A stretch of 64,000 nt of DNA from Thermoplasmatota archaeon (GCA_029259055.1 JAPDJP010000016.1:13019-77018), one strand, 5' to 3'. Positions 9,779 to 37,324 are shown, numbered from the stretch's first letter. The notes: generated from the letters alone by a model not told the origin. Numbers and translations: made by a program.

Positions 9779-10003
9779 ATGTCACTAATTGAAATTTTGA
9801 ATAAACTCAAATGGCATGAAAAATACGATTTTAATAAAGTTATAATATGGTATATAAATAGACCTGATGGAGTAAATTGCATAAGAGGGGAGCAAATAAA
9901 GAAAATTGGCAAAAAATTTTTAGAAACAGAAGGTAAATACATACCATATCACAGAATAATAAAAATTGAATATGAGGGAGAAATAATTTATAAGAAATCC
10001 TAA
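9779..10003 (+). CDS. Small conserved archaeal hypothetical protein (74 aa)
   Basis: ORF only. Confidence 0.4.
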   Translation: MSLIEILNKLKWHEKYDFNKVIIWYINRPDGVNCIRGEQIKKIGKKFLETEGKYIPYHRIIKIEYEGEIIYKKS

Positions 10004-11397
10004 AGAATCTTTACATATCTTATTTTACTACTTTCTACACTATTTCCAGCTTTATCATATGCTATTACTTTTAATTCATTGAATGAAAATCCTTGTGGGA
10101 GAGGAGCTGTATATGGAGCTACATAATCTTTCCATAGTATTTCATCATTCAATATGAATTCAACATAATCAATACCAGAAATACCATCATTTGCCTCCGC
10201 CTCCACAACAAATTTTCCAATTATTATTGTATTGCCAAATAAACTAGACATTATTTTTCTGTTCGCTATATATATGTATCCTTCCTTGGGAGAAACTATT
10301 TCTAAGGAAGGTATTTCTTTATCAATTCTTATTGTAAAATTCTTCTTTTCTTCAACATTTCCAGTTTTATCTATGCTATAAAAATGTATGGTATGAGAAC
10401 CATTTGTAGAAATACTAAATTCTTTTTCATATTTTTTCCATTCTCCATCATTTATTTTATAAAAAGTAGCATTGACTCCAGACAAGGCATCAGCAGCAAA
10501 TAACTTTATTTTTGCATTACTTACAATCCATCCATTTTTTCCATATTTTGCATTTATTGTATAATTAGTTTTTGGAGGGGTATAATCCATTTTTAAAGTG
10601 AAATTTTTCTCTTTTTCAGCATTACCAGCATTATCCGTGCTATAAAAATATACTTTATTTATTCCTTCGTTGCTCACATTAAAGCTCCCATTATATACAA
10701 TCCATTCTCCATCATTTATTTTATAAAAAGTAGCATTGACTCCAGATAAATTATCCTTTGATGACAAGGTTACCATAACTTCTTTATTATACCATTCCTT
10801 TACCTCTGATAAATTATATGTAGTTTGAGGAGGGGTTACATCTATTAAAACAAAAATAGTATCTTTGGCGGAAGCATTATCATTATCATATACTGTTAAA
10901 TTTACAGTATAAAAGCCTTCATTACTATATGTGTGCGCAATTATACTTCCATAAGATGTTTTTCCATCTCCAAAATCCCATACATATTTTACTATGGAGC
11001 CGTCAACATCATAACTTAAATTTGCATTAAAAATTACAGTATAGTTATTCAGTATTATATTTTCCCCAGCATCTGCAACTGGAGGAACGTTTAGTATTGT
11101 TATATTTTTTTGTATATAATCCATATTTCCATTTGCATCCCATATAACCAGTCTAACTGAATATATTCCATTATCGGGATATTTATAAGTTGGATTTTTT
11201 TCTGTACTGCTATTTCCATCTCCAAAATACCAAATCCAAACTACAATATCTCCGGTGGAATTATCAAAAAATTTTACAAATTCTGTATCTGTTGGTTGAT
11301 ACGGCTCCCAATAAAAATCTGCTTTTAAATCATTGCTGGAATTTATTGGAGGTATAAAACACATGAGTATTCCCAGTAGCAAGATCACCTTCCTCAT
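10000..11397 (-). CDS. Secreted PKD-domain surface protein with tandem Ig-like repeats
   Basis: Signal peptide MRKVILLLGILMCF; two PKD motifs (WYFGDGNSS...NGN and WDFGDGKTS...YDNDNA); two ~88-aa repeats containing FYKINDGEW; C-terminal IKVIAYDKAGN Ig-like motif. Confidence 0.8.
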   Translation of the reverse strand: MRKVILLLGILMCFIPPINSSNDLKADFYWEPYQPTDTEFVKFFDNSTGDIVVWIWYFGDGNSSTEKNPTYKYPDNGIYSVRLVIWDANGNMDYIQKNITILNVPPVADAGENIILNNYTVIFNANLSYDVDGSIVKYVWDFGDGKTSYGSIIAHTYSNEGFYTVNLTVYDNDNASAKDTIFVLIDVTPPQTTYNLSEVKEWYNKEVMVTLSSKDNLSGVNATFYKINDGEWIVYNGSFNVSNEGINKVYFYSTDNAGNAEKEKNFTLKMDYTPPKTNYTINAKYGKNGWIVSNAKIKLFAADALSGVNATFYKINDGEWKKYEKEFSISTNGSHTIHFYSIDKTGNVEEKKNFTIRIDKEIPSLEIVSPKEGYIYIANRKIMSSLFGNTIIIGKFVVEAEANDGISGIDYVEFILNDEILWKDYVAPYTAPLPQGFSFNELKVIAYDKAGNSVESSKIRYVKIL

Positions 11398-19459: not shown

Positions 19460-20737
19460 ATGAGCATCCTAATAAAAAATTCAATAATAGTTACTCAGGA
19501 TAGAGAAAGGAGAATAATAGAGGGAGATGTATATATTGAAGATGATAAAATAGTTGAAATTGGTAATATAAATATTGAAGCGGATTATGTTATAAAAAAT
19601 AAAATTGTTCTACCTGGCTTAATAAATATGCATACTCATCTACCCATGACTTTATTACGGGGATATGGAGATGATTTACCATTGGAAGAATGGCTTACAA
19701 CAAGAATATGGCCAATAGAAGCAAAATTAAAAGCAGAACATATTGCAGCAGGAACAAAACTTGCTTTTATAGAAATGATTTCTACCGGCACTACTTGTTG
19801 TAATGATATGTATTTTTTTGAGGATGTTATAGCAAATGAGGCAAAAAAAATGGGAATAAGATGTTATGCAGGTTTTAGCATAATAGATTTCGATACTCCA
19901 GAAATGAAAAGAGAGAAATTGATTCCAGAATGTGAAAAGTTTTTAAAAAGGTGGGATAACGATGAATTAATAAAGCCTGTTGTCGCTCCTCATTCCACAT
20001 ATGCATGCTCTCCAGAAACTTTAGAAAAAACGAGCGAACTTTCAAAAAAATACAGAGCATTTATCCATATACATTGTTCTGAAACAAGGCATGAAGTATA
20101 TGATGTTCTGAAAAAATATGGAAAGAGACCTCTCGAACAAATCAAGGAATATGGATTATTAAATGAAAAGACAATGCTTGCTCATTGTGGATGGATAACA
20201 AAGGAGGAAGTGAGAGAGATTGCCAAAGCAAAAGCATGTGTAATCCACAATCCAGTAAGTAATATGAAATTGGCTACGGGAGGATATACTCCTTTGCCGG
20301 AGTTGATGGAAGCGAATGCAACAATTACATTAGGGACGGATGGGGCGGCAAGCAACAATAAGTTAGATATGTTTGAAACCATGAAATTTACTGCTTTAAT
20401 ACACAAACATCATCGATGGGATGCAAGCATTGTAAAGGCGCAGGAAGTTTTAGATATGGCCACAATTGATGCAGCGAATTTTTTAAAGTTGAATGCTGGA
20501 AGCATAGAAGTTGGAAAAAAAGCAGACATTATATGTATAGATAAAAATATGCCAAATTTAATCCCTCGCCATGATATAATAAGTCATTTAGTTTATTCTG
20601 CATCTGGTTATAATGTAAGTGATACAATAATAAATGGTAAATTAATTATGCATGAAAGAAAGTTTTTAAATATAGATGTGGAAAAGGTATATGAAATGGT
20701 TGAAAAAATGAAAGAAGACTTATTAAATATATCCTAA
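19460..20737 (+). CDS. mtaD: 5-methylthioadenosine/S-adenosylhomocysteine deaminase (amidohydrolase family)
   Basis: Metal-binding NMHTHLPMT, HCSE, and C-terminal GTDG motifs of the TRZ/ATZ/MtaD family. Confidence 0.85.
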   Translation: MSILIKNSIIVTQDRERRIIEGDVYIEDDKIVEIGNINIEADYVIKNKIVLPGLINMHTHLPMTLLRGYGDDLPLEEWLTTRIWPIEAKLKAEHIAAGTKLAFIEMISTGTTCCNDMYFFEDVIANEAKKMGIRCYAGFSIIDFDTPEMKREKLIPECEKFLKRWDNDELIKPVVAPHSTYACSPETLEKTSELSKKYRAFIHIHCSETRHEVYDVLKKYGKRPLEQIKEYGLLNEKTMLAHCGWITKEEVREIAKAKACVIHNPVSNMKLATGGYTPLPELMEANATITLGTDGAASNNKLDMFETMKFTALIHKHHRWDASIVKAQEVLDMATIDAANFLKLNAGSIEVGKKADIICIDKNMPNLIPRHDIISHLVYSASGYNVSDTIINGKLIMHERKFLNIDVEKVYEMVEKMKEDLLNIS

Positions 20738-21241
20738 TTCCTTCATCTTGTTCAGAACTTTTTCAACACTTTCATCAACACTTTCTTTATCAGTTTCAAC
20801 AATTACCTCTGGATTTTCTGGTTCTTCATAGGGGTCATCTATCCCAGTGAAATTTTTTATTTCGCCATTTAGAGCCTTTTTATACATTCCTTTTACATCT
20901 CTTTCTATACATACTTCAAGAGGAGTTTTTACATATACTTCCATAAAATCTTTGCATATTGAACGGGCAAAATCTCTGTTCTCTCTATACGGGCTGACAA
21001 AACTACATAAAACAATAACTCCTCTTTCAGATAACAATTTTGCCATTAATGCAATATATCTCAGATGCTTGTTTCTTCCTTCCTTTGAAAAATCTGTATT
21101 TCTAATATAATTTCTAACAGTATCGCCATCAAGTAGCTCAACATCCTTTCCTTTTTCCCTTAATATTTCCATTAATTTTTTTGCTATTGTCGTTTTTCCA
21201 GAGCATGGCAAACCAGTAAACCATATAGTTACACCCCTCAT
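20723..21241 (-). CDS. cysC: Adenylylsulfate (APS) kinase
   Basis: P-loop FTGLPCSGKTT and LDGD motif; ~172 aa. Confidence 0.9.
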   Translation of the reverse strand: MRGVTIWFTGLPCSGKTTIAKKLMEILREKGKDVELLDGDTVRNYIRNTDFSKEGRNKHLRYIALMAKLLSERGVIVLCSFVSPYRENRDFARSICKDFMEVYVKTPLEVCIERDVKGMYKKALNGEIKNFTGIDDPYEEPENPEVIVETDKESVDESVEKVLNKMKELGYI

Positions 21242-22599
21242 TTTATCACCCTTCCTTCCATATGTAATGGAACTTTAATACCAAATTCATTCAATAAAGT
21301 TGGAGCGAAATCATATATGCTGACTCTATCTAAAATTTTTGGCGTATGAGGATACTTAACAAATATGCCATATTTTGAATGGACCGCATCATCTGGTCCC
21401 GTGTCATTCCTTTCTAAATGTATTTTATTATGTCCTATTGTACCCGCAGACCGCCAATACAAATCATCGAAATATACCATTAAATCCGGAGGGTCTCCTC
21501 TACATTCTGGATATAGTTTCTCTGGCAAGAAAACCTTATTATCCATTTTATTGCCTTTATCATCCTCAACCTTAGAAAGCTCTTTTGCAAGCTCTTTTCT
21601 AACTTCTTCATATTCCTCTTTTTTTATCGCTCCATATTTTTCTCTATCCTTCACGTTTATAAAAACCCTCGCATAATATCCTCCCCATCCCCAAGCGATT
21701 GTTTTATCCCAAGCAACATTAACTCTATCTATACTTCTTATTCCATTTGGCTTCTCTTTTAAAACAAGCCATTCATTTTCAATGAGCCATTCATTTATAC
21801 AAAAAGCTCCTTTCATTCTTTTTGCTCCATGGTCAGATACTATGAAAATTGAAGCATCATCAATCAATTTCAAATACTCGCCTAAATTTCTATCAAGCAA
21901 TTTATAATAATCCCTTATGACATTTTTGAAGGGAGAATTTTCTTCATATAAATGGTGATTTTTATCAAAATATCTCCAAAAAGCGTGTTGAACTCTATCA
22001 AGTCCTATTTCCACAAACCAAAATAAATCCCAATCTTTATTCTGCATTAAATATTTAATGATTTCATGTCTTATCTCAGTCATTTCCCATAAATTTTTGA
22101 CTAATTCCTCCTTCTCATCAGTTCTAAATTCAACATCAAAAATATATTCCCCAACTTCTTTTTCAATTTCTTTTTTTAATTCTTCTGGATACGTATATGG
22201 TTTATTTTTATCTGGAGTTATAAAACATGATATCAGCCAACCATTAAGAGGCAGGGGAGGATATGAAGGAGGTATTCCAATTATACAGCTTTTAAAACCG
22301 TGTTTTGCCAATATGTCCCAAACTTTGGGATATTTCTTAAATTTTGTAGAATTTGCAATCCAAATGTCATTATAACTATTTTCCTTTCTGTGTCTGAATC
22401 CATATATACCATGTCTTCCTGGATTTACGCTTGTTGCCATTACCATCCATGCTGGTATAGTGATAGGTGGGTCACAACTTTCCATAGGCGCATATAAGGA
22501 ATTCCTTAGCAATTTTCTAAAATTTGGCAAATCATCTATAAATTTATTAAAAACCAATTCAGGTGTGGCACAATCCCAACCTAATACTAATGCCTTCAT
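21238..22599 (-). CDS. Alkaline-phosphatase-superfamily protein of the type I phosphodiesterase/nucleotide pyrophosphatase family
   Basis: N-terminal VLGWDCATPE metal-site motif and a downstream SDHG segment; overlaps cysC and the DHH gene by 4 nt each. Confidence 0.65.
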   Translation of the reverse strand: MKALVLGWDCATPELVFNKFIDDLPNFRKLLRNSLYAPMESCDPPITIPAWMVMATSVNPGRHGIYGFRHRKENSYNDIWIANSTKFKKYPKVWDILAKHGFKSCIIGIPPSYPPLPLNGWLISCFITPDKNKPYTYPEELKKEIEKEVGEYIFDVEFRTDEKEELVKNLWEMTEIRHEIIKYLMQNKDWDLFWFVEIGLDRVQHAFWRYFDKNHHLYEENSPFKNVIRDYYKLLDRNLGEYLKLIDDASIFIVSDHGAKRMKGAFCINEWLIENEWLVLKEKPNGIRSIDRVNVAWDKTIAWGWGGYYARVFINVKDREKYGAIKKEEYEEVRKELAKELSKVEDDKGNKMDNKVFLPEKLYPECRGDPPDLMVYFDDLYWRSAGTIGHNKIHLERNDTGPDDAVHSKYGIFVKYPHTPKILDRVSIYDFAPTLLNEFGIKVPLHMEGRVIK

Positions 22600-23561
22600 T
22601 TTTTTCCTCCTAATTCATTTAGAATAATTTTTATGAAATCCTCGCATTCATCCTTTGGAACAATAGCTCCCATAACATTTTTCTTTCCACCAGCAATATA
22701 TCCTCTTTTTTTAGCAGTATCAATTAAAAATGAAACATTATTACCTCTGACATATAACTGACAATCATTATCAAAATATCCCCAATTTACTACAATAACA
22801 TAATCATTTTTTTCCCACAATTTTCTGGCAATAGTAGATATTATATTGTATTTACAATCCATTTCTTTTATAAGTATATTACCCACTTTTTTTCCTTCTT
22901 CAGATAAAATTTTTTCTATTTCATTTTCTATCTTCATTTTATTTTCTATCCATTTTCTATTTTCCAGTATTTCTTCCTTGTTTACTCCTCTTGAAAGAAA
23001 ACGAACGGCATTTTTTATTTCATTAACATCTCCTACTTTATAATTTGAATCAATTAAACTAACCATCTCCAACATTTCTTCAAATTTTATCCTGTTCTTT
23101 TCTATAAATTTTTTAAGTTTCTCATAAAAACGAGTTTTTAAAATTCTCCTTTCCCAATCTCCAACTACTCCTAAAAAAGCTAATAAGTTCTCTTTATTTC
23201 CCAGATATTCATTTACAACCCATGAAGCAGAAGGATATTTTTCTTCATCCTCTCCTTCTATAATAGGATTTATATATTCTATGCCCTCCACTTTCTCCAC
23301 TAAATGATGGTCAAAAACTTTTATTTTCAATTTATATTCCATTAACTTTTTTAGGCTGTCTGTATGCAATGCTAAATCCACAATATATATCTCATCAAAC
23401 TTATCCTTTATTTTTTCTATTTCATCATCTGTTAAAAAATAATTTCCTATTTTTGGAGTCATCAATTCATGTCCATTGTAAAGAAGAGCTGCAGAACATA
23501 TGCCATCTGCATCCCAATGATGTATGATTAGAGACATACTAATCAACAAAAGGATTATCAT
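22596..23561 (-). CDS. DHH-family phosphoesterase (NrnA-like; candidate pAp phosphatase/nanoRNase)
   Basis: HHWDADG DHH motif near the N-terminus, 321 aa. An alternative start at M9 (23537) would leave only 1 nt between sat and this gene. Confidence 0.7.
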   Translation of the reverse strand: MIILLLISMSLIIHHWDADGICSAALLYNGHELMTPKIGNYFLTDDEIEKIKDKFDEIYIVDLALHTDSLKKLMEYKLKIKVFDHHLVEKVEGIEYINPIIEGEDEEKYPSASWVVNEYLGNKENLLAFLGVVGDWERRILKTRFYEKLKKFIEKNRIKFEEMLEMVSLIDSNYKVGDVNEIKNAVRFLSRGVNKEEILENRKWIENKMKIENEIEKILSEEGKKVGNILIKEMDCKYNIISTIARKLWEKNDYVIVVNWGYFDNDCQLYVRGNNVSFLIDTAKKRGYIAGGKKNVMGAIVPKDECEDFIKIILNELGGKK

Positions 23562-24663
23562 AACTCATTACTATTTCGGCAACTTCTTTTCGCATCATGT
23601 TTTCTGGAGGAACTTCACCAGCCCTAATCATTTTTCTTATTGCTGTTCCACTATAATAAATATGATATTCATTTTCGTGAGGACATATCTTTTCGTTTAC
23701 AACATGTCCACATTTTTTACAATAAAAGAAGGATTTAAAGAAAATAGGCGTTATTCCTAAATCTGGAAATTCTTTGAATATATCATGAGCTTCATATGGT
23801 TTATAATAGTTACCAACTCCCGCATGATCTCTACCAACTATAAAATGTGTACAACCAAAATTTTTTCTCATAATTGCATGGAAAATAGCTTCTCTTGGTC
23901 CAGCATATCTCATTTCTGTTCTCAATATAGACAAAACAGCTCTATCTTTAAGATAATAATGCTTAATTAAGGCATCATATGCCTTGATTATCACTTCATC
24001 TTTAAAATCCCCTTTCTTTTTCTTCCCTATAATTGGATTTATAAATATGCCATCTACAAATGTTAAAGCTGTTTTTTGAACATATTCATGTCCCAAATGA
24101 GGCACATTTCTTGTTTGAAAAGCTACAATTTCTTTCCATCCCTTTTCTTTAAAAAGAATCCTTGTTTCATGTGGCATTAGATGATATTCTTCAAACTCTT
24201 CATCGCCTCGTTTAACCAGTTCGATTTTCCCTCCCGCCAGCTTGCTGCCCATTTCCATAATTTTTTTAACGCCGGGATGCTGGACATCTGTTGTTTTAAA
24301 AACTTTTTCAGCATATTCTTTTTTGTCATAGCCATATATTTCCTCAATTTCAAAAGTTGCGACCATGCCATTTTTTGCAAATAGCACAATTTCGTCTCCT
24401 TCTTTTAGCTCCATATTTTTTAAATCGAAAACAATTGGAATAGTCCATGGCAAATCATTGGAAAGGCGCATATTGTAGAGGACATTTTCAAAATCTTCTC
24501 TACAGAGAAATCCCTCTAATGGAGAAAAAACACCATATGCAATATTTTCGATATCATGAGCTAAATCATTGCTTATTTCAATTCTTTCCATTCCATCAAT
24601 GTTTTTTTCTTCATTTACCCTATAAATTAATTTCCCGCCATGTGGAGCAGGTAACCTATTCAT
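23539..24663 (-). CDS. sat: Sulfate adenylyltransferase (ATP sulfurylase)
   Basis: QTRNVPHLGHE and GRDHAG motifs with an N-terminal PUA-like domain. Confidence 0.9.
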   Translation of the reverse strand: MNRLPAPHGGKLIYRVNEEKNIDGMERIEISNDLAHDIENIAYGVFSPLEGFLCREDFENVLYNMRLSNDLPWTIPIVFDLKNMELKEGDEIVLFAKNGMVATFEIEEIYGYDKKEYAEKVFKTTDVQHPGVKKIMEMGSKLAGGKIELVKRGDEEFEEYHLMPHETRILFKEKGWKEIVAFQTRNVPHLGHEYVQKTALTFVDGIFINPIIGKKKKGDFKDEVIIKAYDALIKHYYLKDRAVLSILRTEMRYAGPREAIFHAIMRKNFGCTHFIVGRDHAGVGNYYKPYEAHDIFKEFPDLGITPIFFKSFFYCKKCGHVVNEKICPHENEYHIYYSGTAIRKMIRAGEVPPENMMRKEVAEIVMSYDNPFVD

Positions 24664-24670
24664 TTTATCA

Positions 24671-24901
24671 TCAATCCAGATAGCCCAATGCTCTCAATCT
24701 TTCCTTTATTTTTTCTTCATCTTCCTTGCTGAATACCTCCTCTTTTTCTTCCTCTTCCATGCTTGCTAGTAATTCCCTTAGAACATATGTTACGTAGCTT
24801 GATATGGATGTGAAGCCAGTTCCTTCTATTCTTTTTTTAATTTTTTCCGCTAACGGAGTTGGTATCGAAACGGTTGTATATTTTCCCTTTTCCTCAGTCA
24901 T
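24671..24901 (-). CDS. Ribbon-helix-helix (CopG/NikR-N-like) small DNA-binding protein upstream of sat
   Basis: KYTTVSIPTPLAEKIKKRIE RHH-like segment plus an acidic tail. Start at M18 of the track ORF (24671..24952) is preferred. Ends 7 nt before the sat start. Confidence 0.5.
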   Translation of the reverse strand: MTEEKGKYTTVSIPTPLAEKIKKRIEGTGFTSISSYVTYVLRELLASMEEEEKEEVFSKEDEEKIKERLRALGYLD

Positions 24902-24992
24902 ATTCTTGTAATTAAATATTATTATAAAAATTTTATTAATAGATGTTATCACGGAACAGCAAAAAATTGAAAAAGAGATTTGTTTTCATAAT

Positions 24993-25400
24993 GTGCTCAT
25001 CAGAAAATGCAGGAAAGAAGATTTGGAGGAAATTTATAGAATAGAAAGAATGTCCTTTAAATATCCATATCCAACTTTTGTTTTTCATGAATATTTAGAT
25101 AAATTGTTCTTTGTTATCGAGGAAAACAGGAAAATCATTGGATATGTTATAGCTGATGAAGAAAGAAATTTAATTGTTTCAATAGCCATTCATCCAGATT
25201 ATAGAAGAAAAGGATATGGGAAAATGCTGATGAAGCATGTTTTGAGATTCATGAAAGGAGAAGTTGTTTTACAAGTAAGGAAAAGCAATGAAATTGCCAT
25301 TAACTTTTATAAAAAATTAGGTTTCGAAGAAAAAACAGAATTAAGGAGATATTATATTGATGGAGAAGATGCAATTTTGATGGCTAAGAAGATAGATTGA
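24993..25400 (+). CDS. GNAT-family N-acetyltransferase (RimI-like)
   Basis: Acetyl-CoA motif RRKGYGKMLM. Confidence 0.85.
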   Translation: MLIRKCRKEDLEEIYRIERMSFKYPYPTFVFHEYLDKLFFVIEENRKIIGYVIADEERNLIVSIAIHPDYRRKGYGKMLMKHVLRFMKGEVVLQVRKSNEIAINFYKKLGFEEKTELRRYYIDGEDAILMAKKID

Positions 25401-27214: not shown

Positions 27215-27547
27215 ATGTGTAAGGATATTCCTTGTAAGCCTCCAGATAATATTCCTCAAAAATGGCTTAAACTCCGTAATTTTGTTAAAGCCCTCCGTTT
27301 TCCAACGAGATGGTTAATAATCAGATATATTGGTGATGGAAGCAAAAGCACAAAAGAAATTTATGAATATTTGCTTCAAAGAGGAGAGCGAATAACAAAA
27401 TCAGGATTATATTATCATCTTTCTGAACTTAAAAATGCTGGAATAATAGAAGTTGCTGGATATATAGAAGAAGGAGGAGGAGCACCAGAAAAGGTATGGA
27501 AATTAAAAACGAAAAAAATTGTAATTGATTTGATTGAAGGTGATTAA
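27215..27547 (+). CDS. ArsR-family winged-helix transcriptional regulator
   Basis: HTH region STKEIYEYL...KSGLYYHLSELKNAGII. Confidence 0.7.
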   Translation: MCKDIPCKPPDNIPQKWLKLRNFVKALRFPTRWLIIRYIGDGSKSTKEIYEYLLQRGERITKSGLYYHLSELKNAGIIEVAGYIEEGGGAPEKVWKLKTKKIVIDLIEGD

Positions 27548-27892
27548 ATGAATGCAATAATTATAAATATTATAGCCATCACCGCCTTTTTAATAGCTTT
27601 TGTAAAGGATAGGAAAAAGCAATCTGGAATAAAAGGAATATTATTTATTGGCGTAGTAGGGGCGGTAACGCATATTCCAGCTTTATTATCATTTCCTATA
27701 GCAGCATCATTGCTTGAGGAAGGCGCATCAGTTAGTGCTGTTACCGCTTTTATTACCACGTTAACCATGATCGGAATAGTTACACTACCTATTGAAATAA
27801 AAGAAATTGGAGGAAAGATTGCAATCCTTAGAAATGGATTGAGTTTCATTATTGCAATTATTATTGCTCTTATAATGGGGGCAATATTATGA
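27548..27892 (+). CDS. Small polytopic membrane protein (permease-like); possibly the N-terminal piece of a fragmented permease
   Basis: Three or more hydrophobic helices; immediately follows the ArsR gene. Confidence 0.5.
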   Translation: MNAIIINIIAITAFLIAFVKDRKKQSGIKGILFIGVVGAVTHIPALLSFPIAASLLEEGASVSAVTAFITTLTMIGIVTLPIEIKEIGGKIAILRNGLSFIIAIIIALIMGAIL

Positions 27893-27991
27893 AAAGCATG
27901 ATTAGAGATTGGATTTTATTAGTAATAATTTTTGTAATTTCCAGATAAAAAAGAAGCAATTGTTCACACATCATGGAATTTTTTTATTGAG

Positions 27992-28363
27992 ATGGTTATA
28001 ATACTTCCTGCAGTAATGGTAATATTGGGTCTTTTTGCAATATGGGTGCCTAAAGATATTGTTGTAAAACTTCTTGGAAAAGCATCTGGTATAAAAGGAA
28101 TTTTCTTGGCAATAATGCTTGGAGCACTACCCACCGGCCCACTATATATTGCATTTCCGATGGCTACCGCTTTACTTAAAAAAGGTGCTAAAATATCAAA
28201 TGTTATTATTTTTCTATCTTCTTGGGCTTGTATAAAGGCGCCTCAAGAATTAGTAGAATTCCAGTTTATGGGATTACAATTTATGCTTTTAAGGCTTATT
28301 TTAACAATTATTTTTGTGGTTATTATGGGGTTATTTATAGAGAAAATTTATGATAAGATATAA
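27992..28363 (+). CDS. Small polytopic membrane protein (permease-like); possibly the C-terminal piece of the same permease
   Basis: Same frame as 27548..27892 (both start positions are 2 mod 3); separated by ~100 nt containing a short out-of-frame ORF. Confidence 0.5.
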   Translation: MVIILPAVMVILGLFAIWVPKDIVVKLLGKASGIKGIFLAIMLGALPTGPLYIAFPMATALLKKGAKISNVIIFLSSWACIKAPQELVEFQFMGLQFMLLRLILTIIFVVIMGLFIEKIYDKI

Positions 28364-30257: not shown

Positions 30258-32972
30258 GTGAAAGCAAAATTAATAGCATTACTTTTACCTTTAATCTTAA
30301 TTTTTATACCATATAAAGCAAAAGCACAATATTATGAAAAATTAATTTTGAATTTTCCAGAAGAAATGAAATATCAACCCTTAGATATAAAAATAAAATT
30401 TAAAAATGATTGCCATGCCATAAATGAAGAGAAGCATTCCATAAGAGTTTTATATAAGGGGAAAGAAATAGATAGTCAAATTTATAATTTAAAATTTGAA
30501 AATAATTTATTAAAGGAATGTAACATTGTTTTTTTATATCATGGAAAGGGGGAATATTTAATTGAATATGGGGAGGATGTTAAAAAAAAGGATTATAAAG
30601 ATTTTGTAAGTATAGAAGATTCTTTTTATTATGTTGAACCTATTCCTGGATATTTTGCAAAATTGAATTACTATTCAATAAAAGAAAATGGTAGAATAGT
30701 ATTTGGAATATGTCAAGAAGGAAATGTATTAGGAATAGAGATGGCCAACAAAGTAATAAAATTGAAAGATAATTCAACTGAGTTTAAAATGCAAAACTGG
30801 GAACAAATGTTTTCTTTTGCTCTTTTCCAATCCGATTCTGGAACAGATGAAAAAATGGTTAGCAAAAAAATCATTGTTGACGGAAATTTAATGGTCAGAG
30901 TAGTCATTCAATCAATATCAAAAAATAAAAAAATGAGAACACACGCTATTTATACCTACTATTATTCCCCAACTAAAGAGAAAAGATTATTTGTTAAATT
31001 ATATCATGAAGCAGAAAAATCGGAAGAAAATACCACATATGCATACTTGATGTGTGTTAAATCGAGAAGCAAAACAATAGAAGAACTAAATATGGGGGAA
31101 ATCCTCCCGTATATACATCTAAATGGAAGAAACGGAATAGAGGAGTATAGAATGGATACAAATCCAGAAAATAAAGAAAATAAATGGTTAATTTCTTCAA
31201 AGGATAATGTTGTTCTTGGTGAAAGAGGATGGGTATGTATAGATAATAAAAATAAAGCATATGCACTGATTTTTTCGAAAAGCGGCTTACAAGTTAGAGC
31301 GGCGGTTAGAGAGGAGGTAAATATCCCGGGCTTAGAAATAGACGGGGGAGGCGTAAGCGTTGGAGGCAATAACAGAATTTTTGAAGGAGAAATAGAATTT
31401 TTTTATGGAAGCTATGCAAAAGTGAGTAAAGAAGCTAATGCATTTTTCGATTTTTATGACTATAGAAATTTTTATTATGAAGGAAAAGAAGAGAAAGAGG
31501 AAAAAGAAGAAAGGAAAGAATATAATTTGAGCGTGTTTGTAAATAAATTTTCTATACCATTCTCTTCTCACTTATCTGCATTTTTTGGAATAAATATTCC
31601 TCATTTGGAGGCAGAAATATGGAAAGATAAAATGATTGCAAAGACGATTATAAATTTTAGAAAGGCGAAATTCCGTTTGCCAGAAGGAGAATATATAGTA
31701 AAAATTTATTATAATGGAATATTCAGCAGAAAATTTATCGGTTTTAAATATGTGGTTCTTGATGAAGATAAAAAAATAAGAATCAGTTGTACTTTTGAGG
31801 GAGAAATAAAAATTAAGGTAAAAAATGGAACAAAAATAAGAATTTTTCATTCAAATGCCCTTATAGAAGAAAATATTTCTAATGGAGAAGCGATTATTAA
31901 AGTTCCATGCTTTAAAGAATATGAGTTGAAATTGATTTATAAAGGAATTCTTGTTCATGAAGAAAAAATATTCTTATTTTTTAAAGTTGATAAGGAATAC
32001 AAATTTAATACATATGATTTAAAAGTAGATGTAGTTGATAAATTAGGATTACCTATAGGAATAAATATAACGCCTATTTTGTTTGGAAAGGATGCGGTTG
32101 AGGATTATAAAATGTATGGATTTCATTTTAAAGATTTGCCTAAAGGAATTTATAAGTTAATTATTTCATATAAAGGATATAAAATTGAGAGGGAGATAGA
32201 AGTTTATGATGATAAGTTTATAAAAATTTTATTTCCAGCAGAATATAATATTGAAATTAAAACATACGATTCGAGAGGGTTTCCCATAAAAGCAAAATGC
32301 CTCTTTGAGAGAAATGGCATGGAATTTGAAAAAAATATTCTTCCTCCAGCTGAGTATTTAGTTAAGATATATGATAAGCAACTTATAGCCACAAAGAAAA
32401 TTTTTGTATTAGAAAACGAAAGATATGAAATCGTTACCAAAAAATTTTCCCCTTATCCTTATCTCCTTCCTATTGCTGTTTTATCTTCTCATTTTATAAT
32501 TATGAATCTGAGAAATAAAGGAAATAATAATAAAGGAAAAAAGAAATGGATTAAAAAAACTATAATAATTACATTACTATCTACCTCCTTAGTATTCTCA
32601 TGGTGGCACACAACAGAATACTATAACAATGAAAAATCACAAGTTAACTTATATATGCTACCACCAACAATGATCCAGTTCCATTCTTCATATGGAAATA
32701 TTGTTTCATTGCCTTCTATGTTCAGATTTGCTTTATATATTTCTTTACTTTTCCTTATTTTTTCAATTATATTAACAATTAACCAAAAACTTTTTAAATT
32801 CTCTTTTCTCCCCCTATTATTATCATTAATAACTTATGTTATTTCATTAAAGAAATTTACAAGCATAACCGGTGGTGGTATGAACTTTGGGATAGGCTTT
32901 TATTTGGCATTAACATCATTATTTTTAATAATTATAAAGGTGATAATAAATGAAGCTAGAAGAAGCAGTTAA
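30258..32972 (+). CDS. Large (904 aa) secreted protein with a C-terminal polytopic membrane domain; function unknown
   Basis: Signal peptide MKAKLIALLLPLILIF..AKAQ; ~720-aa hydrophilic region; then 4-5 hydrophobic helices in the last ~180 aa. Confidence 0.6.
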   Translation: MKAKLIALLLPLILIFIPYKAKAQYYEKLILNFPEEMKYQPLDIKIKFKNDCHAINEEKHSIRVLYKGKEIDSQIYNLKFENNLLKECNIVFLYHGKGEYLIEYGEDVKKKDYKDFVSIEDSFYYVEPIPGYFAKLNYYSIKENGRIVFGICQEGNVLGIEMANKVIKLKDNSTEFKMQNWEQMFSFALFQSDSGTDEKMVSKKIIVDGNLMVRVVIQSISKNKKMRTHAIYTYYYSPTKEKRLFVKLYHEAEKSEENTTYAYLMCVKSRSKTIEELNMGEILPYIHLNGRNGIEEYRMDTNPENKENKWLISSKDNVVLGERGWVCIDNKNKAYALIFSKSGLQVRAAVREEVNIPGLEIDGGGVSVGGNNRIFEGEIEFFYGSYAKVSKEANAFFDFYDYRNFYYEGKEEKEEKEERKEYNLSVFVNKFSIPFSSHLSAFFGINIPHLEAEIWKDKMIAKTIINFRKAKFRLPEGEYIVKIYYNGIFSRKFIGFKYVVLDEDKKIRISCTFEGEIKIKVKNGTKIRIFHSNALIEENISNGEAIIKVPCFKEYELKLIYKGILVHEEKIFLFFKVDKEYKFNTYDLKVDVVDKLGLPIGINITPILFGKDAVEDYKMYGFHFKDLPKGIYKLIISYKGYKIEREIEVYDDKFIKILFPAEYNIEIKTYDSRGFPIKAKCLFERNGMEFEKNILPPAEYLVKIYDKQLIATKKIFVLENERYEIVTKKFSPYPYLLPIAVLSSHFIIMNLRNKGNNNKGKKKWIKKTIIITLLSTSLVFSWWHTTEYYNNEKSQVNLYMLPPTMIQFHSSYGNIVSLPSMFRFALYISLLFLIFSIILTINQKLFKFSFLPLLLSLITYVISLKKFTSITGGGMNFGIGFYLALTSLFLIIIKVIINEARRSS

Positions 32973-34236
32973 ATATGCTACAGATTTGCTACTTAGCTTG
33001 CCAAAGAAAACAAAAATCAGGATAATAGGACATATAGATGCAGATGGAATTGCATCAGCATCAATTGTTGCGATAGCTTTGGCAAGGGCTGGTTATAGGT
33101 TTCACATCTCAATAAAGAAAACGGAGCCAGACCTTATTAAGGAGATAAAAAAGGAGGATAATGATTTAGTAATATTTGTTGATATAGGAAGCAGTTATTT
33201 AGAGGAAATGAGGGAATTAAAAAATGTGATAGTTTTAGAGCACCATCTTGGGAAAGAGGAAGCACCATCCAATGTTATGTATTTAAATGCAAGATTTTTT
33301 GGATTAGATGGAAGTAAAGAAGCTTGTGGTGCAAGCGTTGCATATGCTTTTGCTTTAGCCTTAGATGAAGAAAATGTAGATTTGTCCCAGCTAGCTATTG
33401 TTGGAATAATAGGAGATAAACAACAGTTCATTGGATATAATAAGAAAATTGTAGAAGATGGGATAGGGAGTGGATTTATTGAAGAAAGAGATGAATATAT
33501 TTTGGTTGGAAAAAGCTTAAAGGAAGCATTAGAAAATTCCTTAGAACCTTATTTTACTGGCTTTTATAAATCATCCGCCTCATTCTTAGATAAATTAGGT
33601 ATACAGCCCCAAAAAAAATTTGAAGAATTGGAAGATGAAGACAGAAGAAAATTATTATCCGCCTTAACTTTAAAGTTATTGGAACAAGATGTAGATGAAA
33701 TTGCTTGGAGGAAAAGAATATACTATGGGAAAAATTATGGAAATTTATATGATATTTCATCAAAACTTAATGCTTGTGCAAGATTAAATGAAGCTGGTGT
33801 TGGAATAGCAATATGTTTAGGAGATAAAAAAGCTATTGATGTAGCTCATGTCATACAGGAAAAGTATAGGGATGAGATAAGGAAGGAAATGAGAGAAATG
33901 GAAAAAAAAGAACCATATGAAAAAAACAATTTCATCTATTTTTATACTGATAAGGCTCCATTAGCGGGTGTGCTTGCTGGACTTGCTTTAAAGTATTTGC
34001 CAAATTTTAAGAAAGATAAGCCAATTTTGGCTCTTTCATATAATGAATTTATCGATGTTTCGGCAAGAGCAGATGATAAAATGGTAGAAAATGGGGTTAA
34101 TCTTGGAGAAGCTTTGAAGCTGGCAGCAGAAAAAGTTGGGGGAATAGGAGGGGGACACCCAGTTGCAGCGGGAGCTAAAATAAGGAAAGATAAGGAAGAG
34201 GAGTTTTTAGAAGAAGTGGATAAGTTGCTAAAATGA
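32950..34236 (+). CDS. DHH/DHHA1 RecJ-like (Cdc45/GAN-like) protein
   Basis: N-terminal DHH motif GHIDADGIASA and C-terminal DHHA1 GGGHPVAAGA. Confidence 0.75.
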   Translation: MKLEEAVKYATDLLLSLPKKTKIRIIGHIDADGIASASIVAIALARAGYRFHISIKKTEPDLIKEIKKEDNDLVIFVDIGSSYLEEMRELKNVIVLEHHLGKEEAPSNVMYLNARFFGLDGSKEACGASVAYAFALALDEENVDLSQLAIVGIIGDKQQFIGYNKKIVEDGIGSGFIEERDEYILVGKSLKEALENSLEPYFTGFYKSSASFLDKLGIQPQKKFEELEDEDRRKLLSALTLKLLEQDVDEIAWRKRIYYGKNYGNLYDISSKLNACARLNEAGVGIAICLGDKKAIDVAHVIQEKYRDEIRKEMREMEKKEPYEKNNFIYFYTDKAPLAGVLAGLALKYLPNFKKDKPILALSYNEFIDVSARADDKMVENGVNLGEALKLAAEKVGGIGGGHPVAAGAKIRKDKEEEFLEEVDKLLK

Positions 34237-36194
34237 AGGAATTAATAATATGTGAGAAGAACATTGCAGCTAGAAGAATTGCATATATACTTTCAAATGG
34301 AAAATTAAAACAAGGTAGGATATATGGTATACCATACTATTATTTTAATGATTCTGTTGTTATTGGATTAAAAGGACATATTAAAAAATTGGATTTTCCG
34401 AAAGAATATTCGAGATGGACAGATATAACACCAAAAGAACTTATTGATGTAAAGCCTATTAAAAAATTAATAGATAGAAAAATAGCAATGGCGGTAAAAA
34501 ATTTGGCCAAAGATGCTACTCGAGTAATTATTGCAACAGATTATGATAGGGAAGGAGAGTTAATTGGGGTGGAAATTTTAGACCTATTGCCAAAAAATAT
34601 TGAAATAAAAAGAGCAAAGTTTAGCTCAATAACTCCTATAGAAATAAAAAAAGCATTCGAAAATTTGGAGGAGGTTGATTATAATTTGGCTAAATCGGCA
34701 GAAGCAAGACAATATATAGATTTAATCTGGGGTGCCAGCCTAACAAGATTTATTTCTCTTGCATCAGAACAATTAGGAAAGGATTTTTTATCTGTTGGAA
34801 GGGTGCAATCACCAACATTGGCATTGATTGTTGAGAGGGAGAAAGAAATAAAGGAATTTGTTCCTAAGCCTTTTTGGAAAATAAAAGTAAAGTTTGAAAA
34901 GGACGGTAAAGAATTTTTTGCAGAATATCCAGATAAAATATGGGAAGAAAATAAGGCAAAAGAAATATATGAAAAATTAAAGGAAAGAAATAAAGGAATT
35001 GTTGAAAATTTTGATAAAAAATTAAAAGAGGATTTACCTCCACATCCATTTGATACAACAACGTTTTTGAAAGAAGCATCATCTATAGGATTTTCAGCTC
35101 CTCAAGCAATGAAAATTGCGGAGGAACTTTATATGAATGGATTGATTTCATATCCTAGAACAGATAATACTGTATATCCCTCCCTCCCCTTCAAAAACAT
35201 TCTCAAAAAAATTGAAAAAATTTTTCCTAAAGAAGTAAAAGAAGTTTTCAAAATGTTAAGGGAGAAACCAGTGAGAGGGAAGAAATTTAGCAAAGACCAT
35301 CCTCCCATCCATCCAGTTGATGCAAGAGAGATTAATGGAGCCCATTTGAAAATTTACGAGTTAATAGCAAGAAGATTTATGGCAACATTATGCAAGAATG
35401 ATGTATTAGAGATAAAAAAAGCAGAAATAAATGTTAATGGAATAAAATTGGTTGCAAATGGTATAGTTATAAAAGAAAAAAATTGGAGGAAAGTGTATCC
35501 ATCTAAAGTTGAGGAAAAATTCTTGCCAGATTTAAAGGAAAAAGAAGAAATTAATATTGTTGAAATTAAAAAAATAAGAGGGGAAACAAAACCACCAAAA
35601 AGATATACACAAGGTAGTTTAATTGTAGAGATGGAGAAACTCGGATTAGGAACAAAATCGACAAGGCATGAAATAATAGGGAAACTATATCAAAGAAATT
35701 ATATAAGAGGAAAAAAAATAGTTGCTACGCCTTCCGCCTTTGCCGTTGTTAATGCGTTAAGGAGGGGCGCCGAAATAATAACAAAGCCGGATATGACTTC
35801 ATTGCTTGAAAAAGAAATGGATAGAATTGCTGAAGGAAAAAAGGAATTTGAAGAAGTTGTGGAGGAATCGAAAGAAATTTTGAAGAAAGCTTTTGAAATT
35901 TTAGAAAAAAATGAAGAGAAAATAGGAGCAGAAATTAAAGAAGCAATGAACAAGCAAAATTATTTTGGGAAATGTAATAGATGTGGAAGTGATTTAGTTT
36001 TATTAAAATCTTCTAAGGGAAAGAGATTTATTGGCTGTTCAAATTTTCCAAAATGTCAGAATAGCTATCCCTTACCCCAAAAAGGAAATGTTGTTTTTGA
36101 GGGAGATTATTGTAAAAAATGTGGTGCGCCAGTAATAACTATTATTTATAAGGGAAAAAAATGGAAAAAATGTGTTAATATGAATTGTGGTTAA
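34233..36194 (+). CDS. topA: DNA topoisomerase type IA with C-terminal zinc ribbons
   Basis: [15 protein letters not shown], catalytic Tyr region [10 protein letters not shown], and two C4 zinc ribbons at the C-terminus. Confidence 0.9.
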
Positions 36195-36457: not shown

Positions 36458-37324
36458 ATGTTCCAAAAATGGAAGGAAAAGGTAATTGTAAATGGAATAG
36501 AAAAAGAAATAGAGATAAGAAAAGATGGATATTGGCAAAGAAGGTGTAGAATAATTCAAAGAGCTGGCTTGGAATTAACAAAGGAAGAAGATTTTTCAGA
36601 TTTAATAAATAAAGAATGCATATTCTGTCAACCAGAAAAGTTGGCAAAATTCGATTTCGGAATGCTTGAAAATGAGGTTGCTTTCTTATTTCCAAATATT
36701 AATCCATATGCTGAATATAGTAGCGTGTGTGCATTTAAAAAACATTTTATTAAGCCAAATGAATTTACAGCTTTACTAATACAAAAAAATCTCGAATTAT
36801 GCATTGAATATATAAAGAAAATAGAGGCAGAATATATTTCAATAAACTGGAATTATTTGATGCCCGCTGGCGCCAGCATTTTGCATCCCCACCTACAAGT
36901 TGTAGGAAGCAATTATCCCACAACATATATGGAAAAAATTGAGAATATAAGGTTTGAAGAATATGTTAAAAAAGAAATCGAGAGTGAGAGATATGTTGGG
37001 AGAATAGGAAATATTGAAATCTTTACCCCATTTGTTCCTTTTGGTTTTAATGAAATTGTTGGCGTAGCTAAAGGTAATATTTTTAAAGAATATAGGAGCA
37101 TAGCGGAAGCATTAGAAAAAATAATAGCATTTTATGCAAGTATTGGAAGAAATTCTTTTAATATAAGTATCTATACCAATCCATTACATTTTAGATGCAT
37201 AACTAGGCAGAACATGGTAAAGTATTATAGAAATGATGCAATGTTTTTCGAAAGACTGCATAATGAAATCATTTTAGAAAAGAAACCAGAGGAAGTGGCA
37301 AGAGAATTTAAAGATTTTTTATAA
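36458..37324 (+). CDS. GalT/Apa2-like HIT-superfamily nucleotidyltransferase
   Basis: Zinc-site CIFCQ and HPHLQ active-site motif (His-x-His-x-Gln). Confidence 0.6.
   Translation: MFQKWKEKVIVNGIEKEIEIRKDGYWQRRCRIIQRAGLELTKEEDFSDLINKECIFCQPEKLAKFDFGMLENEVAFLFPNINPYAEYSSVCAFKKHFIKPNEFTALLIQKNLELCIEYIKKIEAEYISINWNYLMPAGASILHPHLQVVGSNYPTTYMEKIENIRFEEYVKKEIESERYVGRIGNIEIFTPFVPFGFNEIVGVAKGNIFKEYRSIAEALEKIIAFYASIGRNSFNISIYTNPLHFRCITRQNMVKYYRNDAMFFERLHNEIILEKKPEEVAREFKDFL

Follow-up and report, generated by a model that had tools for sequence, protein, structure and literature searches.

The gene cluster described here lies in a stretch of 64,000 nt from a Thermoplasmatota archaeon (GCA_029259055.1, JAPDJP010000016.1:13019-77018), which is called the window below and is meant at its full length. 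On its minus strand, at 20723-24901, we found five co-directional open reading frames (ORFs), which encode, in this order, a small ribbon-helix-helix (RHH)-like protein, the ATP sulfurylase Sat, a DHH-family phosphoesterase, a nucleotide pyrophosphatase/phosphodiesterase (NPP)-type enzyme of the family PF01663, and the adenosine 5'-phosphosulfate (APS) kinase CysC (Table 1). The first-pass annotation of this DNA, made from the sequence, had placed an operon with this order exactly there. The junctions were read in the sequence. Between the stop codon of the RHH-like gene and the ATG of sat lie 7 nt (tgataaa), in agreement with the gap given earlier, and the DHH/NPP and NPP/cysC junctions are ATGA overlaps. 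Such an overlap had also been claimed between sat and the DHH gene, but here the junction is TAG-T-ATG, with a 1-nt spacer.

Table 1. Features of the gene cluster, in window coordinates.
Feature	Position	Strand	Remarks
Small RHH-like protein gene	24671-24901	-	76 aa, ATG at 24901
sat, ATP sulfurylase	23539-24663	-	374 aa
DHH-family gene, phosphatase type for 3'-phosphoadenosine 5'-phosphate (PAP)	22596-23537	-	313 aa
NPP/alkaline-phosphatase-superfamily enzyme (PF01663)	21238-22599	-	453 aa
cysC, APS kinase	20723-21241	-	172 aa
Divergent AT-rich intergenic region, presumed operon promoter/operator	24902-24992	.	91 bp, function inferred

On its upstream side the cluster borders on a GNAT acetyltransferase gene, which is divergent and starts at 24993, and downstream on a convergent amidohydrolase gene at 19460-20737 on the plus strand. 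The 3' ends of cysC and of the amidohydrolase gene overlap by 15 nt (20723-20737), which leaves no space for a separate terminator. The same five genes, including those for the 76-aa RHH-like and the 313-aa DHH protein, were called on an identical 9-kb Logan contig. An upstream ATG at 23561, which would result in a 23-nt overlap with sat, was ruled out as the start of the DHH gene, since the HHWD motif begins directly after the downstream ATG and the length of 313 aa was called independently on the Logan contig. The five-gene operon is confirmed as real; its arrangement is far beyond chance, and dozens of unrelated genomes share this gene order.

All four enzymes were assigned by profile matches well above the curated cut-offs. 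Sat matches PF01747 (ATP-sulfurylase; E = 2e-93) and PF14306 (PUA_2; E = 4e-44) in Pfam, and its score against NF003166 is 531 bits at a cut-off of 387. Both the profile match and the PUA-like N-terminal domain are those of an ATP sulfurylase, and the closest solved structure is the ATP sulfurylase (ATPS) of Methanothermococcus thermolithotrophicus (8a8d, E = 5e-154). Similarly, CysC matches PF01583 (APS_kinase; E = 8e-59) and TIGR00455 (217 bits, cut-off 138.7), its translation contains the P-loop GLPCSGKTT of an APS kinase, and its closest solved structure is the APS kinase (APSK) of the same methanogen (MtAPSK, 8a8h, E = 4e-51). These family assignments support the earlier proposal that Sat and CysC together make 3'-phosphoadenosine 5'-phosphosulfate (PAPS).

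The DHH protein matches PF01368 (E = 2e-8; 34.8 bits, cut-off 28.1), and its closest solved structure is again from M. thermolithotrophicus, namely the PAP phosphatase (PAPP) MtPAPP (8a8k, E = 4.6e-33, residues 3-306). The motifs of the two proteins align in register (HHWDADG/HHWDTDG, YIVDL/YILDL, DHH/DHH, VGD/VGD as part of GxVGD, and AGGK/AGGK). MtPAPP was described as an exonuclease-derived DHH PAP phosphatase and is a fast, PAP-specific Mn enzyme with the metal ligands His6, Asp8, Asp10, Asp57, His76, His77 and Asp127 (PMC10322725). All its metal-ligand motifs are kept in the window protein, and so is the DHHA1-side GGK/GGR motif for nucleotide binding (residues according to PMC10322725 and PMC8268124). 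Hydrolysis of PAP (pAp) was shown for PYCH_17540, the PyapApase of Pyrococcus yayanosii (PMC8268124), and is ascribed to TON_1706 of Thermococcus onnurineus in papers citing the original work (PMC4463584, PMC8268124). Taking the activity from this literature on orthologues, the prediction that the window protein is a PAP phosphatase of the MtPAPP/PyapApase/TON_1706 type is supported, and this is the type of enzyme that the first-pass annotation had suggested. The pApase of P. yayanosii is 61% identical to MtPAPP, while the window protein is a distant homologue. A topoisomerase gene (34233-36194) is directly preceded by the gene for a second protein with DHH and DHHA1 domains (32950-34236, plus strand, 428 aa). 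This RecJ/GAN-like protein is not related to the operon and represents another potential nanoRNA/pAp hydrolase.

The protein encoded between the DHH gene and cysC matches the Pfam family Phosphodiest (PF01663) with E = 4e-48 and 165 bits at a cut-off of 23. A plain sequence search against the PDB gave no significant match, and its tie to the NPPs comes from a fold search and a weak profile search only. The AlphaFold2 model (pLDDT 91.3) has its best fold matches in ENPP1, ENPP3, ENPP5, ENPP6 and the Xanthomonas NPP, with E values of 1e-15 to 1e-13, 13-16% identity and a TM-score of about 0.55-0.6. The top 50 matches listed by Foldseek for the PDB all belong to the NPP family, including the sphingomyelinase ENPP7, autotaxin and snake-venom phosphodiesterase, each with a probability of 1.00. 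In 17 orthologues from many phyla, D9, T47, D201, H205, D256, H257 and H407 are invariant. T47 aligns with the nucleophilic Thr, and D256-H257 with the DHG motif, of the Xanthomonas NPP (Xac NPP, 2gsn) and of phosphonoacetate hydrolase. Thus, a Thr nucleophile and six Asp/His ligands for two metals appear to be present, the ligands other than D256-H257 being assigned by the order of the motifs. The fold, the bimetallo site and the Thr-nucleophile motifs are common to the window protein and the ENPPs and Xanthomonas NPP; in contrast to them, the window protein is cytoplasmic and operon-embedded, and the substrate reported for its orthologue is inorganic pyrophosphate (PPi) and not a nucleotide diester. 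More than 5,000 relatives with 55-60% identity were found in databases, and they are spread across archaeal phyla.

The role of this enzyme had been regarded as not obvious. However, a published assignment exists: as cited from Lee et al. 2009, TON_1705 of T. onnurineus is an inorganic pyrophosphatase with a kcat of 2.1 s-1, a Km of 18.8 uM and a pH optimum of 9.5 (PMC9653972, Table 1), which would remove the PPi released by Sat. The window protein is most plausibly the orthologue of PYCH_17550 of P. yayanosii and also of TON_1705. Removal of PPi was rate-limiting in the ATPS/APSK assay of Jespersen & Wagner (PMC10322725). The supplements of the latter paper contain nothing on the NPP-type gene or on WP_018154121, and phosphoesterases are not mentioned in PMC6286981.

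The first gene of the operon encodes a protein of 76 aa with a match to RHH_1 (PF01402) that remains below the Pfam threshold (E = 0.047; 14.1 bits, cut-off 20.5). RHH_1 is matched with E of at most 0.05 by 11 of 18 orthologues (best 4e-4), and a profile built from the 18 orthologues matches the RHH domain of NikR (2bj1, E = 0.008) at residues 7-47. The single-sequence AlphaFold2 model, which is of low confidence (pLDDT 69), has helices at 15-25, 33-46 and 59-71, that is, two helices at the positions expected for an RHH protein and an additional C-terminal helix. The counterpart in P. yayanosii, PYCH_17520, was named a putative copG transcription factor (PMC8268124). Based on this, we presume that the 76-aa protein is a CopG-type regulator of the cluster. 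It is the product of the best conserved gene of the cluster, with 83-86% identity to orthologues from Thermococci and Archaeoglobi, compared to 57-66% for Sat. Outside the RHH core, the C-terminal 20 residues (EVFSKEDEEKVKERLRALGYLD) hold most of its invariant columns, which is unusual for a simple repressor. In the divergent intergenic region, a TATA-like run, aaaatttttataataata, precedes the ATG at 24901 by approximately 16-33 nt, and overlapping AT-rich palindromes were found at 24915-24941. The region probably holds the promoter and the operator of the operon.

An archaeal operon of exactly this composition had been considered undescribed, but the identical five-gene cluster is published for P. 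yayanosii CH1 (Jin et al. 2021, PMC8268124). There, PYCH_17520-17560 encode in sequence the copG-type protein, ATP sulfurylase (17530), the DHH pApase (17540), a type I phosphodiesterase/nucleotide pyrophosphatase (17550) and APS kinase (17560), and the same paper lists equivalent clusters in Ferroglobus placidus, Aciduliprofundum boonei, Aeropyrum pernix and Ignicoccus hospitalis. At the P. yayanosii locus of our survey (L082; the survey loci are numbered L002 and so on, and are introduced below), the RHH, sat, DHH, PF01663 and APS kinase genes stand in the window order on one strand. The identities between the window proteins and their P. yayanosii counterparts are 76% (RHH), 63% (Sat), 35% (DHH, the most diverged component), 56% (NPP) and 53% (CysC). 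In a tblastn search of the window with the five P. yayanosii proteins, only the corresponding genes were matched, with E values of 8e-26 to 7e-165, and all five pairs are homologous over their full length (by tblastn, and for the NPP-type protein also by BLASTP). The two loci differ in what surrounds them: the P. yayanosii cluster continues into genes for TauE, a Wzx-like flippase, a second, longer PF01663/sulfatase-like protein, a family 2 glycosyltransferase (GT2) and DegT, whereas the window operon is flanked by housekeeping genes and has none of these beside it.

The four enzyme genes were also published as neighbours in T. onnurineus NA1, where, according to PMC4463584 citing Lee et al. 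2009, TON_1704 is APS kinase, TON_1705 pyrophosphatase, TON_1706 PAP phosphatase and TON_1707 ATP sulfurylase, a further description that predates the claim of a novel operon. Their orthology to the window genes is suggested by the loci of P. yayanosii and of a metagenome-assembled genome (MAG) of Thermococcus. As far as the citing papers report, both embedded phosphoesterases of T. onnurineus were assayed, TON_1705 on PPi and TON_1706 on PAP. In contrast to T. onnurineus, the window host is an uncultured archaeon of low GC content (approximately 31%).

A third relative is the locus of M. thermolithotrophicus (Jespersen & Wagner 2023, PMC10322725), the ATPS, APSK and DHH PAP phosphatase of which are homologous to the window proteins and are their closest solved relatives (8a8d, 8a8h, 8a8k). 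The locus of this type in our set (L084, 71-5899), the DHH protein of which is 100% identical to MtPAPP, has the order ATPS-PAPP-APSK-TauE-PAPSR alpha-PAPSR beta, PAPSR being PAPS reductase. Here an APS-reductase-like PAPS reductase is adjacent and there is no PF01663 gene between those for PAPP and APSK, while in the window the PF01663 gene is present and scans for a reductase found none.

The conservation of the cluster was surveyed in one genome per GTDB species. At least 590 loci carry an orthologue of the NPP-type gene, and the best 80 were examined; as evaluable we counted those with enough flanking DNA. Among these best 80, the nearest relatives of the window NPP-type protein are labelled Thermoplasmatales (L002, 83% identity). 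For this reason, and because the DHH protein is related to MtPAPP only distantly (E = 4.6e-33), an origin of the window from a methanogen of the Methanococcales was considered and rejected. On the same strand and just downstream of the NPP-type gene, cysC was present in 60 of the 73 evaluable loci (82%). Upstream of it we found sat in 42 of 65 evaluable loci (65%), an RHH-like gene in 52 of 65 and a DHH gene in 22 of 65; together, sat and cysC were present in 32 of 60 evaluable loci. The archaeal hosts comprise MAGs labelled Thermoplasmatales, Hydrothermarchaeota, Baldrarchaeota, Bathyarchaeia, Asgard lineages, Archaeoglobi, Thermococci, Hadarchaeota and Nitrosopumilales (Nitrososphaeria-type MAGs), and the NPP-type gene is also present in Methanocaldococcus and Methanotorris. 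Bacterial hosts include Aminicenantes, Eubacteriales (Clostridia-type), Rubrobacter (actinobacterial), Paenibacillus and Desulfotomaculum. In 2021 the distribution was given as 'some Euryarchaeota and Crenarchaeota' (PMC8268124); the cluster including the RHH-like and NPP-type genes is spread much wider than this.

Five loci from Aminicenantes and Eubacteriales (L059, L061, L066, L075 and L079) have the RHH-like and NPP-type genes without sat or cysC, adjoining genes for an SDR (short-chain dehydrogenase/reductase) epimerase and UDP-glucose dehydrogenase; in L059 and L079 the RHH-NPP region is located around 10001-11360. Such loci fit a pyrophosphatase role, because nucleoside diphosphate (NDP)-sugar pyrophosphorylases also release PPi.

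Based on these data, the window operon is very probably another copy of a conserved archaeal cluster for the synthesis of PAPS and the removal of its by-products, which was already described in Thermococcales. Gene content, gene order, orthology, catalytic motifs and conservation were computed here, the PAP phosphatase and pyrophosphatase activities come from the literature on orthologues, and regulation by the RHH-like protein as well as the fate of PAPS are what we infer. In the proposed pathway, Sat would convert ATP and sulfate to APS and PPi, a very unfavourable reaction. The NPP-type enzyme would hydrolyse the PPi and CysC would phosphorylate APS to PAPS, so that the two reactions together would pull the Sat step forward. 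An enzyme encoded elsewhere in the genome would then use PAPS and release PAP, and the DHH enzyme would cleave PAP to AMP and phosphate, so that PAP would not inhibit PAPS users and exoribonucleases. The RHH-like protein would act as the presumed transcriptional regulator at the 91-bp divergent promoter region. In this way the operon would make PAPS and remove its two inhibitory by-products.

Several observations weigh against this interpretation. Of the two, cysC is a more frequent partner of the NPP-type gene than sat, and Archaeoglobi clusters without sat (e.g. L013, L022 and L038) have kept the NPP-type gene. This gene is missing from the locus type of the only methanogen proven to assimilate sulfate (L084), so a dedicated pyrophosphatase that pulls the Sat reaction is not obligatory. 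The pyrophosphatase assignment itself stems from one in-vitro study of one orthologue, known through citing papers, and the kcat reported there is low for a pyrophosphatase. Moreover, the orthology to TON_1705 is derived from the shared operon position in Thermococcales, and the window protein was compared directly with the P. yayanosii orthologue and the Thermococcus MAG only. To these points can be added the RHH_1 match below threshold and the lack of a PAPS consumer in our scans of the 64-kb window. Most of the oddities in the linkage of the NPP-type gene would be explained if the enzyme served more generally in the removal of PPi from reversible nucleotidyl transfers, such as those by Sat and by NDP-sugar pyrophosphorylases.

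Concerning the use of PAPS, the first-pass annotation had noted the lack of genes for a PAPS/APS reductase or a sulfite reductase nearby, and had taken this to mean that the operon feeds sulfotransferase chemistry, for example the sulfation of glycans or lipids, rather than reductive assimilation, with the DHH enzyme recycling the PAP released. The first part was borne out for the ORFs of the 64-kb window that were scanned: neither these reductases nor a sulfotransferase was found in Pfam scans of 48 of the larger ORFs outside the operon (110-924 aa, among them nearly all those with 200 aa or more), and a motif scan of all window ORFs of at least 80 aa gave no match to a PP-loop, the CysH motif ECGxH or the 5'-phosphosulfate-binding (PSB) loop of sulfotransferases. 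A pathway of the M. thermolithotrophicus type, with adjacent PAPS reductase alpha and beta subunits and an F420-dependent sulfite reductase, was likewise not encountered in these scans.

The view that PAPS serves sulfation is mildly supported by the neighbourhoods of the cluster in other genomes. Glycan-synthesis families and TauE recur most often among the additional neighbours: of the 80 loci, an SDR epimerase/dehydratase is encoded near the cluster in 25, a nucleoside triphosphate (NTP)-transferase in 16, TauE in 15, UDP-glucose dehydrogenase in 10, a Wzx-type flippase in nine, two families of GT2 in seven and six, respectively, DegT in six and a sulfatase in five. If nine glycan-related families are counted (including GT4-like proteins and hexapeptide acetyltransferases, and excluding TauE and sulfatase), at least one is present within 10 kb in 44 of the 80 loci, at least two in 22 and at least three in 12; these are raw counts, without a background rate from random 20-kb stretches. 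A CysH-type motif was found near the cluster in one locus of the 80 only (L043, where a CysH-like gene stands next to sat). In P. yayanosii and Methanocaldococcus bathoardescens (L083) the cluster runs directly into genes for TauE, a flippase, the long PF01663/sulfatase-like protein, GT2 and DegT. Further, sulfation was already raised as an idea in PMC10322725 and PMC8268124.

On the other hand, glycan genes, TauE, a flippase or a second paralog of the alkaline phosphatase (AlkP) superfamily do not stand beside the window operon, and the last three were found nowhere in the window. The PSB-loop motif of canonical sulfotransferases occurs in one of the 80 neighbourhoods only, the glycan counts lack the background control mentioned above, and several archaea with these genes encode thioredoxin-type APS/PAPS reductases at other sites (PMC10322725). 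Taken together, a sulfation module is a possibility to which we would give somewhat less than an even chance.

The long PF01663/sulfatase-like paralogs, which are present in 12 of the 80 loci, deserve mention here. Those of P. yayanosii (L082:11386-13023, minus strand) and M. bathoardescens (L083:11271-12887, minus strand) have 538-545 aa, are 27-30% identical to the window NPP-type protein and are encoded between the Wzx-like flippase and GT2, downstream of the cluster by a few genes. The long paralog may be a glycan-modifying enzyme.

The competing view is ordinary assimilatory sulfate reduction. Other parts of the genome would then encode a sulfite reductase and a PAPS reductase, the latter being either CysH-type or of the APS-reductase-like kind present in M. 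thermolithotrophicus. The published cluster was labelled a sulfate-assimilation cluster (PMC4463584, PMC8268124). The locus of the M. thermolithotrophicus type, in which the PAPS reductase subunits follow ATPS-PAPP-APSK-TauE, belongs to an organism that grows on sulfate, and the CysH-like gene of L043 also fits this view. However, within the 64 kb analysed here no reductase was found, and genes for reductases are almost never linked to the cluster (one of 80 loci). Besides, no sulfite-reducing core enzyme was identified in P. yayanosii (PMC8268124), and Methanocaldococcus infernus does not grow on sulfate although it has the genes and putative reductases (PMC10322725). We therefore regard reduction as rather unlikely. 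In PMC10322725 and PMC8268124 both fates are discussed as open. The glycan-gene neighbours in other genomes mildly favour sulfation, and we slightly prefer sulfuryl transfer, with a glycan or another molecule as the acceptor, to reduction. Thus, of the earlier proposal of sulfation instead of reduction, the lack of a reductase in the window stands and the glycan neighbours elsewhere speak for it, while 64 kb cannot decide the matter and the idea itself was already in the literature.

One may also speculate that the PF01663 protein does not primarily serve in PPi removal but acts on sulfonucleotides. It could hydrolyse APS or PAPS in a regulatory or editing function, or it could be a non-canonical PAPS-dependent sulfuryl transferase with a covalent intermediate at Thr47. 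The NPP fold, the complete bimetallo site with the Thr nucleophile and the 55-60% identity kept across phyla are compatible with such activities, as are the closer tie of the NPP-type gene to cysC than to sat, its persistence in clusters without sat, its absence where a PAPS reductase adjoins (L084) and the low kcat reported for PPi by the citing papers. Other members of the alkaline-phosphatase superfamily, LtaS and EptA/MCR-1, are group transferases, and vertebrate NPPs hydrolyse PAPS; both facts count in favour of this idea. The 'sulfation' lead from Agl7 of Haloferax was considered as a precedent for an AlkP-type sulfotransferase and was dropped, since the paper assigns Agl7 to no family.

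However, the sole biochemical data on an orthologue, as far as reported by the citing papers, concern the hydrolysis of PPi with a low Km, hydrolysis of APS or PAPS within the operon that produces them would be a futile cycle, and the RHH-NPP pairs beside nucleotide-sugar genes are more in keeping with the general removal of PPi than with an enzyme for PAPS. We consider a role on sulfonucleotides improbable. Archaea without canonical sulfotransferases and PAPS reductases should have some non-canonical enzyme that uses PAPS, which has long been sought. It would be a long shot to identify it with the PF01663 protein, as a sulfuryl transferase or as a hydrolase or regulator specific for sulfonucleotides and working via Thr47, or with the longer paralog from the glycan islands that adjoin the cluster in Pyrococcus and Methanocaldococcus.

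With the operon read as a cluster for PAPS synthesis and by-product removal, the window adds one more uncultured archaeon to those carrying it; the composition and both phosphoesterase activities were published in 2009, 2021 and 2023. What our survey adds is the broader taxonomic spread of the cluster and its frequent glycan-synthesis neighbours. The wider question, acknowledged in the literature, is why an operon for PAPS synthesis, despite its cost and with no obvious consumer of PAPS, is maintained in many strict anaerobes among the archaea of sulfide-rich habitats. On this the window itself gives no new handle.

A few other window genes on the plus strand are worth recording. An ORF of 904 aa (30258-32972) and one of 288 aa (36458-37324) have no significant match in Pfam, even at E = 0.05. 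At 27215-28363, an ORF of 110 aa without a Pfam match precedes two membrane ORFs of half size (114 and 123 aa), the second of which matches the N-terminal part of the predicted permease ArsP_1. The two membrane ORFs look like a permease split into two pieces.

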